NCBI GenBank assembly: GCA_017864995.1
Contig: GCA_017864995.1_4097.1
Length of the DNA: 64,000 nt
Reading direction: 5' to 3' (one strand)
Source of the DNA: a phage
The translations under genes were made by a program, and so were the position numbers. The notes beneath the pieces are model-generated. The model made no database searches and was not told the DNA's origin. It was given only the letters and a program-made list of their open reading frames with translations. This document shows positions 3,328 to 7,750 of this stretch, one piece after another (the first letter of the stretch is position 1; the number at the start of each line of letters is the position of its first letter).

Positions 3328-3618
3328 TTGTTATTGGGGATTACTATGCATTTTGAAAAATTCAATACAAATCGTAACACACGCATTGACGTTCTTTATG
3401 AAACACAAGACACAATAAGCATTCGTACACGTAGTGGTGATGTATATCATGACTGTACTATTGGTTGGGAACAGGGAAGAACACGTAGTGCAGAATTCGA
3501 TAACTATCGCTTCTACCAAGGGGACACCACAATCTGGCCTGAAGACGTAGAAGATATTGCGATTGAAGATGAACATAAAGATGAATTTATAAAATTTAAT
3601 CCCGAAACCGAATCATAA
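3328..3618 (+). CDS. hypothetical protein
   Basis: ORF track; true start may be ATG 3346. Confidence 0.45.
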   Translation: MLLGITMHFEKFNTNRNTRIDVLYETQDTISIRTRSGDVYHDCTIGWEQGRTRSAEFDNYRFYQGDTTIWPEDVEDIAIEDEHKDEFIKFNPETES

Positions 3619-3632
3619 ATATTGGGACAGAC

Positions 3633-3751
<119 letters not shown>

Positions 3752-3756
3752 AAATC

Positions 3757-3856
<100 letters not shown>

Positions 3857-3858
3857 CC

Positions 3859-4019
<161 letters not shown>

Positions 4020-4023
<4 letters not shown>

Positions 4024-4180
4024 CACATGAAGAATGGATGAATGACATTAATTTTAGATATTCGGGTATCGGTAAATGGCTAAAGTATCATTGGGAATTC
4101 ATTTCAGAGCCACATCTGTATGATAAACTTATCAACGATCCAGCATATGAAATGTACTTAATTGAACTACTGGTACGAAC

Positions 4181-4184
<4 letters not shown>
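4020..4184 (+). CDS. mini-protein MTHEEWM family, copy 2 (54 aa)
   Basis: as copy 1; about 75% identical to copy 1 by eye. Confidence 0.5.
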
Positions 4185-4352
<168 letters not shown>

Positions 4353-4353
4353 G

Positions 4354-4807
<454 letters not shown>

Positions 4808-4835
4808 GTATCTTAATAACAGAAGGTATATTGAA

Positions 4836-5075
4836 ATGAGTAAGTATTTTGTGAGTTATAGTTATAATGTATCACAAAAGGTTCCACGTGGTGATGGAAT
4901 GGGCTGGTCATATGATACATATACTTTAAATGAGTCATGTATCATCGAATTGCAAGAAAAAGACCTTGACATTTTAAAAATCAAACAATATATTCTTGAT
5001 GTTGAATTGGCACATCGTACCGACAACTGTCCAGATGTAAACAACGTCAACATCTTAGTACTAACCAAAGTATAA
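4836..5075 (+). CDS. hypothetical protein
   Basis: ORF track frame; start at ATG 4836 downstream of the promoter. Confidence 0.5.
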   Translation: MSKYFVSYSYNVSQKVPRGDGMGWSYDTYTLNESCIIELQEKDLDILKIKQYILDVELAHRTDNCPDVNNVNILVLTKV

Positions 5076-5081
5076 GATAAA

Positions 5082-5115
<34 letters not shown>

Positions 5116-5470
5116 GAATTCCACAATCAGACGTATATGGTGTAAGTTACGTCGATGTAATCCAGAACAAGATCTCTGGTACTCTAGGAAGTGGTGAATG
5201 TTAACCTAGACGGGTTTGATAATTGGACGATAGGCAATTATTACTTGACTAGCAGGTTTAAACTAGAGGTGACAGTCCTTTACCAAACTGGAAAACCGGA
5301 TGGACTTTTATTTAAAAGGGTAAGGCGTGGAAATATGTTTACAGTAGTTGCTTTTAGTAGCCTGTACGCCCCACGTCAAGGTAGCCGAAAGGCAAGTTAA
5401 AACGGGTGGTTATAAAGCTGAATTAACAGCGGCGTTTAAAAGCGTCACCATCCATTTTTTTAATTAAAGT
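5116..5470 (+). ncRNA. candidate structured non-coding RNA or long leader transcribed from promoter 5085-5113
   Basis: about 350 bp between promoter and next SD with no SD-preceded ORF; GNRA-like CGAAAG hairpin GGTAGCCGAAAGGCAAG; ends in T-run at 5453-5461; ORF-track ORF 5191..5400 has no SD. Confidence 0.3.
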
Positions 5471-5477
5471 TGGTGAT

Positions 5478-6297
<820 letters not shown>

Positions 6298-6310
6298 ATA
6301 GGAAATTAAA

Positions 6311-6496
6311 GTGCAACTTTTAATTCTTTCAATATTGTATATTATTATAATGGTTCCGATATCAATACGTTTAATTACACTTGAACGATTTTTATCGAAA
6401 CATGGAAATAGATCTATGATCTTTGTACCAATCGGGTTGATATTGTTTGGTATATTTTCATTTATAATGGGAATTAACGCTACATTCATTTCATAG
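6311..6496 (+). CDS. small hydrophobic protein (GTG start)
   Basis: ORF track; hydrophobic segments. Confidence 0.4.
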   Translation: MQLLILSILYIIIMVPISIRLITLERFLSKHGNRSMIFVPIGLILFGIFSFIMGINATFIS

Positions 6497-6505
6497 GAAA
6501 CAAAT

Positions 6506-7036
<531 letters not shown>

Positions 7037-7081
7037 GATTCCCGATTCAGTAGCTTATAAAGCAGTTCCGTGTGTGCCTAT

Positions 7082-7173
<92 letters not shown>

Positions 7174-7192
7174 AGAGGTACTTCGAGTATGC

Positions 7193-7318
<126 letters not shown>

Positions 7319-7320
7319 TA

Positions 7321-7523
<203 letters not shown>

Positions 7524-7574
7524 GCCTCCCCTCAATGCGAAAGAGTATGGAGACTTGTTGGTTATCTTACTTCT

Positions 7575-7657
<83 letters not shown>

Positions 7658-7660
7658 TCA

Positions 7661-7733
<73 letters not shown>

Positions 7734-7750
7734 CAAAATAAAGGTACACT

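Follow-up and report, generated by a model that had tools for sequence, protein, structure and literature searches.

Two probable accessory RNA genes in the transfer RNA region of an Asteriusvirus-type jumbo coliphage, one of them shared with unrelated large phages

Introduction

What does a strong phage promoter transcribe when some 360 nucleotides (nt) separate it from the next start codon that has a ribosome-binding site? The question is raised by positions 5116-5470 of a 64,000-nt stretch of phage DNA (GenBank assembly GCA_017864995.1, contig GCA_017864995.1_4097.1), the whole of which is called the window hereafter. An earlier interpretation, which we call the sequence-only reading, had proposed that this promoter-driven region of about 350 nt makes structured RNA rather than a protein, and the elements on which it drew are all present, at the positions that it gave or a few bases away. 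We arrive at a related but different answer, to which we assign a probability of roughly 0.6: the region would hold two accessory RNA genes, here named modules A and B, behind one strong early promoter of host type, and their products would be stable, trans-acting RNAs made in the way that transfer RNAs (tRNAs) are.

Phage tRNA clusters have contained unexplained small stable RNAs since the description of RNA C and RNA D in T4, some 50 years ago, and none of these RNAs has an assigned function. Module A provides a better-defined example, with a covariation-supported fold of about 190 nt that is carried by phages of E. coli, Klebsiella, Proteus, Morganella and Aeromonas.

By blastn comparison, the window is that of an Asteriusvirus-type jumbo coliphage: positions 4400-6300 are 97-99% identical to BF17, fEgEco12, 121Q and PBECO4, all of them Asteriusvirus phages with genomes of ~350 kb. 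The locus is a tRNA region, in which ARAGORN and Rfam find six tRNAs (3662-7734) and no transfer-messenger RNA (tmRNA) in the window. The same six-tRNA set has been reported for fEgEco12 (PMC13070987).

Results and Discussion

Promoter and coding potential

The promoter, which is of the sigma-70 type expected for early transcription, lies on the + strand at 5087..5115 and consists of TTGACT (5087-5092), a 17-nt spacer and the extended -10 element TG-n-TATAAT (5107-5115); it scores 11/12, with the extended -10 in addition. From this spacing, transcription would be expected to start near A5123. A 25-mer that includes part of it (TACTTGACTAAATAGTTCAGTACTG) occurs in four near-identical copies (4352, 4773, 5084 and 5843), against 0 expected in 100 shuffles, and a looser pattern finds seven promoters of this type within the window. 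The strong repeated promoter that had been placed before the region is thus real, as is the sister copy said to drive tRNA-Ser(GCU): this second promoter occupies 5846-5874, and the tRNA (5881-5970) starts 7 nt later. The first start codon with a ribosome-binding site after the promoter at 5087 is the ATG at 5478, preceded by GGTGA at 5472-5476, so that the long gap noticed earlier measures ~360 nt.

Is this gap coding? An open reading frame (ORF) at 5191..5400 does exist (69 amino acids, GTG start), and several GenBank records annotate a hypothetical protein in the region. In the window, in 121Q and in the homologous locus L014, the frame stays open over 69-70 codons, which would favour a protein. 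It is however reduced to 17 codons in the RaK2-like phages and to 12 in all Aeromonas phages, is broken in loci L005 and L015, meets a stop at codon 3 in phage PM2 (as read from the sequence) and continues into a tRNA gene in a T5-like phage. The only purine-rich stretch near its start, AGGAA, directly abuts the GTG and, having no spacing, is therefore not usable as a ribosome-binding site, which agrees with the earlier remark that this ORF has no Shine-Dalgarno sequence. In addition, the three ORFs of the region have no match in Pfam or PHROGs at E-values up to 0.1, and substitutions track base-pairing instead of codon positions. That the ORF at 5191..5400, or any other small ORF of the region, encodes a protein is extremely improbable; by these comparisons neither module is translated, and the GenBank annotations of hypothetical proteins under the region appear to be spurious.

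Structure of module A

Folding of single sequences only marginally beats shuffled controls (z = -1.96 for the whole region, -1.05 for module A and -2.68 for module B), and the case for structure is therefore built on comparison with other phages. The sequence-only reading had suggested two checks in this respect: an Infernal search of Rfam, which matched no family of Rfam 15, and a search for covarying structure in related phages, in which the helices of both modules proved to covary strongly. For module A, a structured RNA of about 190 nt at 5119..5308, a covariance model (R1) of 190 positions and 37 nested pairs was built from 12 close sequences, and it recovers 19 loci at 68-241 bits, namely the window (240.6 bits) and 18 others. 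In alignment A4, 97.0% of 829 pair cells are standard pairs, versus 83% after shuffling and 24-40% when partners are slid, and both sides have changed in 27 of the 45 pairs; the observed values were reached by none of 500 shuffles. Two pseudoknot pairings (PKa and PKb) were left out of R1, so the alignment was not fitted to them, and a plain, unfitted MAFFT alignment yields the same covariation for helices H3, Hc1 and H5 and for PKa and PKb. On this covariation, module A is a pseudoknotted RNA family that is new relative to Rfam 15.

From 5' to 3' on the + strand, the fold comprises hairpins H1 to H4 and Hc1, followed by H5 and the pseudoknot pairings. H1 (5126..5156; 5126-5128 and 5130-5135 with 5148-5156) pairs AUC-(bulged A)-GACGUA with UACGUC-GAU around a loop that keeps A-YGR-YGUA; both sides have changed in six of its nine pairs, and in phage Mm5 it is a perfect stem of 9 base pairs (bp). 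H2 (5162..5179; CCAGA/UCUGG) is a hairpin of variable length with three of five pairs changed on both sides, and becomes a CCG/CGG stem in SdyM006 and in the T5-like phage. H3 (5183..5210; UCUAGG/CCUAGA), the loop of which conserves A-GUG, is 100% paired with four doubly changed pairs out of six, and H4 (5219..5241; AUAAUUG/CAAUUAU), with the invariant loop GACGAUA, is 99% paired with all seven pairs changed on both sides. Hc1 (5243..5257) joins ACUUG to CAGGU across the pentaloop ACUAG, within the most conserved stretch of the module (CUUGACUAGCAGGnnnAAACUAGAGGU); its pair 165/177 is CG in 16 sequences, AU in two and GC in one, and pair 164/178 is AU in 12 and CG in six.

The 3' core of module A (CUUGACUAGCAGG-n3-AAACUAGAGGU..GUCC..GGAC) holds one well-supported pseudoknot and a probable second one. 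In the former (H5 + PKb, 5268..5305), GGUGA (5268-5272) pairs with UUACC (5280-5284), and the intervening loop GUCC (5275-5278) pairs with GGAC (5302-5305). Both H5 and PKb are 100% paired, and pairs of PKb vary as GC 12 / AU 6 / GU 1 and as UA 15 / CG 4. In the probable second pseudoknot (PKa, 5249..5266), CUAG of the Hc1 loop (5249-5252) would pair with CUAG at 5263-5266 to give a compact pseudoknot of the H type whose connecting loop is rich in A; PKa is 100% paired, and its covariation consists of a single pair, UA to AU in the Ceceduovirus phages. The same CUAG (5263-5266) can also pair with CUGG at 5288-5291, a competing pairing that carries the same single Ceceduovirus covariation, and a double pseudoknot and two exclusive conformations fit the data alike.

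This ambiguity raises the idea that module A is a catalytic or ligand-sensing RNA, for example a ribozyme that acts on the tRNA transcript by self-cleavage or processing, or an RNA that switches between conformations. Its pseudoknotted core is highly conserved, as would be expected of such an RNA, and three positions changed together in the Ceceduovirus lineage, so that 5263-5266 can pair either with the Hc1 loop or with 5288-5291, as it should if the two conformations exclude each other. Yet this signal amounts to a single lineage event, no Rfam ribozyme or riboswitch matches at E-values up to 10, and no cleavage-site signature was identified; we consider a ribozyme or switch very improbable.

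The strand is fixed by an invariant U-G pair in Hc1 and G-U pairs in H5, which would be A-C mismatches on the other strand, and both modules are read from the + strand. Several additional pairings and likenesses were set aside. An extension of H4 (GGG 5212-5214 / CUU 5244-5246) clashes with Hc1 and has an uncompensated third pair, and a long-range pairing of 5' UUCCA with 3' UGGAA displays no covariation and would lose part of its 5' strand at the likely transcription start of the window. GAGG..AGUCC resembles helix P4 of RNase P RNA, but P4 is nearly invariant in RNase P RNAs while the bases concerned covary freely here (ACCC/GGGU, AUCC/GGAU), and Rfam is negative. A tmRNA-like tag frame starting from GACGAU gives peptides that are not conserved. 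Finally, the GGA motifs of a CsrA-type sponge are, judged by eye, neither convincingly enriched nor positionally conserved.

Arrangement of the two modules in relatives

Does the region make a single RNA? Covariation, the broken ORF and homologues located between tRNAs uphold the earlier proposal of promoter-driven structured RNA instead of a gene, but a single RNA of 350 nt was rejected, since relatives split A from B. In RaK2, KP13-7 and the metagenome contig L016, a promoter (TTGAAC, 17 nt, TATAAT) stands between A and B. The metagenome contig L015 has a promoter dedicated to module A and, immediately behind this module, a second promoter with a different RNA. A promoter drives module B alone in JNE01, and in EJP2 it drives module A, which runs straight into tRNA-Ser(GCU). 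Finally, phage Sharanji, for which E. coli K-12 was the isolation host, shows a natural deletion (L114 701-760): about 330 nt are missing, comprising module B and all of module A but its first 39 nt, and the promoter with these 39 nt is fused directly to the ribosome-binding site of a gene homologous to 5478-5849. By blastn, phAPEC6 and G17 likewise match over these 39 nt only. Both modules are thus dispensable accessories, since there are relatives with only A, with only B and with neither of them, and these natural variants provide close relatives that could be compared on hosts with different defence systems.

The same arrangements bear on a cis-acting role, in which A and B would be the 5' untranslated region of gene 5478-5849 and act on stability, translation or read-through, the three-way junction at the end of module B (described below) being a regulatory or processing site. 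No promoter separates this junction from the ATG at 5478, B or its junction lies just upstream of a promoterless ORF in four lineages (the window, JNE01, L015 and RaK2, where the ORF is ORF217), and on contig L101 a junction is located ~25 nt upstream of a ribosome-binding site and ATG. However, module A sits between tRNAs with no downstream ORF in five other phage groups, and in L015 and RaK2 it is directly followed by another promoter. The junction is likewise encountered after a tRNA-Ser with a promoter behind it (RaK2), between tRNAs (EJP2) and before module A (at the end of the RaK2 RNA B'). The ORFs located 3' of B begin differently in the window, L015 and RaK2, as compared by their starts only, and Sharanji appears to keep the same downstream gene behind the promoter with neither A nor B. 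A leader or processing element is thus conceivable, but we regard it as unlikely.

Two observations concern these relatives. The minus strand of L015 (JACCDR011713278.1) carries an array of cassettes that begins with tRNA-Leu, a small RNA hairpin and module A. Next come an unrelated RNA, ~190 nt long and closed by a stem of 20 bp (AUCAACGGUGAGUAACAUUG / CAAUGUUACUCACCAUUGAU), then tRNA-Arg, module B with its ORF, and tRNA-Met; most of these cassettes have their own copy of the phage promoter. Variation of the anticodon loop in phage tRNAs has been linked to escape from tRNA-targeting defences, and a tRNA-Ser with anticodon ACU is found in JNE01 (L025 1771-1862), EJP2 (L026 3603-3692) and Sharanji (L114 1173-1264), according to ARAGORN and the GenBank record; its wobble A is unusual, and in JNE01 and Sharanji it occupies the place of tRNA-Ser(GCU) of the window.

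Distribution of module A

We searched a phage collection with blastn, and metagenome, genome and viral contig collections with exact patterns of the core. The full 364 nt are 97-99% identical in jumbo phages of E. coli and Salmonella, and ~81% identical, with a 40-nt insertion, in Klebsiella phages RaK2 and K64-1. The first half alone (query 4-190) matches other phage families at 85-92% identity, namely T4-like Bragavirus (Proteus phages PM2 and Pm5461, Morganella phage Mm5 and "Shigella" phage SdyM006) and T5-like Novosibvirus (Proteus phage 1), and a 64-nt core matches in T4-like Aeromonas phages. Module A is thus present in jumbo phages of E. coli and Klebsiella, in T4-like phages of Proteus, Morganella and Aeromonas, and in T5-like phages of Proteus. 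It is 82-90% identical when unrelated phage families are compared, and in the Aeromonas phages and L005, at 55-57% identity, the fold is kept.

Module A always lies in a tRNA region and on the strand of the tRNAs. For example, it exactly spans the ~200-nt gap from tRNA-Gly to tRNA-Asp in PM2 and SdyM006, fills the gap from tRNA-Leu to tRNA-Ser in Proteus phage 1, and ends 3 nt before tRNA-Glu in Mm5. Similarly, six Aeromonas phages carry it 3' of tRNA-Pro, and the five loci that extend far enough have tRNA-Thr as the next tRNA. A host origin was discarded: the exact core motif has 0 matches among 185,579 species of bacteria and archaea, each represented by one genome, the whole region has no match in 5,426 complete E. 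coli genomes, and the metagenome matches to the core are all jumbo-phage-like contigs. As far as these comparisons tell, module A has spread horizontally among the tRNA arrays of unrelated large phages.

Such mobility could also be that of selfish or decaying DNA, the modules being what is left of tRNA genes, or being carried along when homing endonucleases and recombination move DNA between tRNA clusters, and having no function of their own. Presence is patchy among close relatives (A only, B only, neither), the very high identity between unrelated phages suggests recent transfer, a segD-like endonuclease adjoins the SdyM006 locus, and segB resides in the T4 tRNA cluster. Against this, compensatory changes keep seven helices and the pseudoknot pairings at 55-57% identity, which requires selection on the RNA fold, and loop and junction bases are invariant (GACGAUA; CUUGAC..GCAG..AAC..GAGGU). 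Moreover, module A has a dedicated consensus promoter in the jumbo phages, and neither ARAGORN nor the Rfam tRNA model detects a tRNA remnant. Selfish or decaying DNA is therefore a quite improbable explanation.

With regard to the Aeromonas loci, phage avDM6 (L003) contains a tRNA of undetermined identity with a four-base anticodon (ggtg) at 2238-2309, as called by ARAGORN, and a 116-nt Rfam tRNA match at 1205-1320 that has neither an ARAGORN call nor a GenBank annotation.

Relation of module A to known RNAs

At gathering thresholds, Rfam 15 recognizes only tRNAs in the whole window. When E-values up to 10 are allowed for 4950-5650, three matches appear at chance level (14-18 bits versus cut-offs of 38-40), with no tRNA or tmRNA among them, and ARAGORN finds no tRNA or tmRNA in 5116-5470. 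No Rfam family covers the region in the homologous loci of RaK2, the Aeromonas phages, L005 and Kuravirus. Known RNA families (6S RNA, RNase P RNA, signal recognition particle RNA, Y RNA/YrlA, ribozymes, riboswitches, GOLLD/ROOL and others) were set aside on these Rfam 15 and ARAGORN results. The genome papers on this phage group make no mention of such RNAs; a catalogue of 10,006 candidate viral structured RNAs has been published (PMC10690425).

The closest analogue of module A is the pair formed by T4 RNA C and RNA D (rnaC and rnaD; the stable RNAs of species 1 and 2), which measure 119-139 nt and are encoded within the tRNA cluster, on the tRNA strand, directly abutting tRNA-Arg. In T4-like and T5-like phages, module A is placed in the same way, abutting tRNAs and on their strand, and the junction of module B is found in tRNA regions as well (RaK2 and EJP2). 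RNA C and RNA D are dispensable. Unlike them, module A is longer and has pseudoknot pairings, while RNA C ends, unlike module A, in a T-arm-like hairpin (CCGGGUUCGAAUCCCGG). No homology between either of our modules and rnaC or rnaD was detected in the T4 tRNA region (L009), whether with R1 and the junction model R2 or by reading the sequences, and R1 has no match in the Kuravirus locus. Both T4 RNAs originate from the T4 tRNA region and their biological role is unknown (PMC3014915, PMC9697503); they are classed as late (PMC9697503), whereas module A of the jumbo phages has its own promoter of early type.

A more distant likeness, through the 3' pseudoknot pairing and the association with tRNA genes, is to the pseudoknot strings of tmRNA and to viral tRNA-like structures, and compact H-type pseudoknots form the acceptor arm of some plant-virus tRNA-like ends. 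Unlike tmRNA, module A has no acceptor stem joining its ends, no T-arm, no CCA end and no conserved tag frame. Finally, PA5oct, a jumbo phage of a group related to 121Q and RaK2, produces ORF-free transcripts that make up 2-5% of phage reads (PMC7318152), and such phages therefore do make abundant non-coding RNAs. Neither R1 nor R2 finds a homologue in the 17.5-kb PA5oct terminal-repeat stretch that holds ncRNA001 and ncRNA002.

Module B and the three-way junction

Module B (about 5318-5462, + strand) is composed of a covarying hairpin domain, a GNRA hairpin, a three-way junction and a U-run. Its 5' domain (5324..5377) is formed by P1 (GGCGUGG/CCACGUC, 5324-5330/5371-5377), P2 (UACAG/CUGUA, 5340-5344/5362-5366) and P3 (GUUGC/GUAGC). 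Pairing in this domain is 97% and four of its pairs have changed on both sides, values that 1 of 500 shuffles reached, while slid controls give 24-35%, and here the minimum-energy fold is the same structure. The GNRA-like hairpin and the terminal T-run that the sequence-only reading had listed as features of the region do exist, but they are confined to module B. The hairpin (GGTAGCCGAAAGGCAAG, 5381..5397) has a GCC/GGC stem and a GAAA loop (GCC-GAAA-GGC at 5384-5393), and is kept in every copy of module B and in a short inter-tRNA module of EJP2; the T-run consists of seven T at 5455..5461.

The three-way junction (5404..5453, + strand; 84.5 bits with covariance model R2) is closed by a 7-bp stem (GGGUGGU/ACCAUCC), which is followed by UAUAAA, the hairpin GCUG-AAUUAA-CAGC and a second hairpin, GGCGUU-UAAA-AGCGUC, that stacks directly on the 3' strand with no spacer. 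Across nine variants, the junction is 95% paired and six pairs have changed on both sides, the 7-bp stem being 100% paired in all nine copies; the conserved core is UAUAAA + nCUG-AAUURA-CAGn. R2 finds one junction in the window and 10 more copies in related loci. Three are in RaK2 (one after a tRNA-Ser, one ending B', a different RNA located after tRNA-Gly, and one ending module B) and three in L016, one of them after a tRNA. The junction also ends module B in L014, L015 and JNE01, and lies between tRNA-Ser and tRNA-Arg in EJP2. Finally, L101, a 44-kb IMG/VR contig from an unrelated phage of higher GC content, carries a junction on the minus strand (3451-3512; 61 bits) between two protein genes, with a compensated hairpin, no U-run and no tRNA nearby.

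The region ends in a T-run, as had been noted, but what precedes the run (after one A) is the three-way junction and not a simple terminator hairpin. Although U7 follows the 7-bp closing stem, a simple scan for intrinsic terminators makes no call in 5404-5461. The U-run is present in all Asteriusvirus copies examined, is AAAUUUU in the RaK2-like phages and L015, and is missing from EJP2 and L101; it may be a partial terminator or a 3'-end signal. The three-way structure, the scan result and the copies that have no U-run make a plain terminator less likely. As copies follow tRNAs, end other RNAs and adjoin protein genes, the junction is, by its placement, a portable boundary marker for cassettes of RNAs or genes, and not simply a terminator. 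Its reuse offers a handle for finding further RNA cassettes in phage genomes. A purine riboswitch was discarded: only the J1/2 segment (UAUAAA) is alike, J2/3 and J3/1 measure 0 nt, and Rfam gives no purine match. In bacterial genomes, the exact junction pattern has 71 matches, which we attribute to chance because none is convincing with R2 (31 bits or less).

A helix of ~12-13 bp approximates acceptor plus T arm, the minimal helix recognized by RNase P, RNase Z and CCA-adding enzymes, and the 7-bp stem of the junction stacked with its 5-6-bp hairpin reaches this length, as in the t-elements of plant mitochondria and in the MALAT1 mascRNA-type signal. Like such tRNA-like punctuation signals, the junction is located at boundaries between tRNAs, other RNAs and ORFs. 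Unlike t-elements, it has a UAAA-type tetraloop instead of a T-loop, with no D-arm or anticodon-arm geometry and no conserved discriminator or CCA, and its core UAUAAA + nCUG-AAUURA-CAGn has no tRNA counterpart. RaK2 encodes a CCA-adding enzyme, a polynucleotide kinase and an RNA ligase (PMC3622015); a link between these CCA-adding and RNA repair enzymes and the likeness of the junction to an acceptor/T-arm helix is suggested by analogy only.

Two loci provide additional observations. In RaK2 (L008 2834-3006), B' directly follows tRNA-Gly and has a different 5' domain, with an AACAGGU...ACCUGUU closing stem and a CCCCGAAAG hairpin; its terminal junction shows compensated stem changes (GGAUGAU/AUUAUCC). 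The 5' hairpin of module B also occurs in Kuravirus podophages, inside an ORF-free region of ~790 nt. In Escherichia phage vB-EcoP-XT18 (L013), this stretch with no annotated gene extends from 1514 to 2302, the hairpin copy is at 2001-2054, and the end of the region (~2129-2275) contains a tRNA-like acceptor stem and T-arm followed by ACCA (UACAGGU...GUAGGUCCGAACCCUAC-ACCUGUA-ACCA). ARAGORN and Rfam make no call in these ~790 nt, which may constitute a large unannotated RNA.

Proposed production and possible function

How would these RNAs be made, and for what? We propose that in the jumbo phages each module is transcribed early from its own promoter and that elsewhere module A is part of a multi-tRNA transcript. 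The modules would then be cut out by the tRNA-processing enzymes of the host, with RNase P cutting at the 5' end of the next tRNA and RNase E plus 3' exonucleases acting after the CCA of the previous one, and would accumulate as stable RNAs. This production route, from an early promoter or a tRNA polycistron through tRNA-processing nucleases, is a well-grounded inference. Our best guess for module A is a stable RNA that acts in trans, independently of its genomic neighbours, and whose compact fold probably binds, as a decoy or scaffold, some conserved protein of the host or the phage; a plausible partner would be a protein linked to tRNAs, to translation or to host defence. The junction may serve as acceptor-stem-like punctuation, or as a 3'-end unit that marks or protects transcript ends.

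Several points weigh against two trans-acting RNA genes. We found no Asteriusvirus transcriptome in the literature, and the RNAs are predictions known from sequence alone. In the window, where no promoter separates A from B, the two share a transcript, and an ORF starts 16 nt after the T-run, again with no intervening promoter, which makes a role as an mRNA leader conceivable for B. Most of the 19 module A sequences belong to about five lineages, so that a small number of evolutionary events underlies many of the covariation counts. The nested helices, unlike the pseudoknots, were used in fitting alignment A4. The thermodynamic signal of module A is weak, and its single-sequence fold differs from the covariation-supported one. 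High identity across phage families could result from recent transfer rather than from constraint on every base, and the distribution is that obtained with blastn for phages and exact core patterns for the other collections.

A broader and more tentative interpretation, which we rate as doubtful, is that module A represents an undescribed class of phage non-coding RNA with a compact, pseudoknotted fold, exchanged horizontally among the tRNA arrays of three groups of large virulent phages that are unrelated to one another (T4-like, T5-like and RaK2/121Q-like jumbo phages) and acting in trans on a conserved host component, with the junction as tRNA-mimicking punctuation. If so, module A might, for example, act as a decoy for a defence nuclease that targets tRNAs or senses RNA, or bind the machinery of transcription or translation, and the junction would let phages build arrays of promoter-RNA cassettes that are cut apart by tRNA maturation enzymes.

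Other features of the window

Two further features were noticed in the tRNA region of the window. The spacer of 154 nt between tRNA-Ser(GCU) and tRNA-Met (5971-6124) contains no notable ORF and includes a -10-like box (GAGTATAATG). Just 3' of tRNA-Ser(UGA), three tandem ORFs of 54 amino acids (3859-4023, 4020-4184 and 4181-4345, within 3859-4345) each begin with MTHEEWM, and look like the tandem triplication of a small gene.

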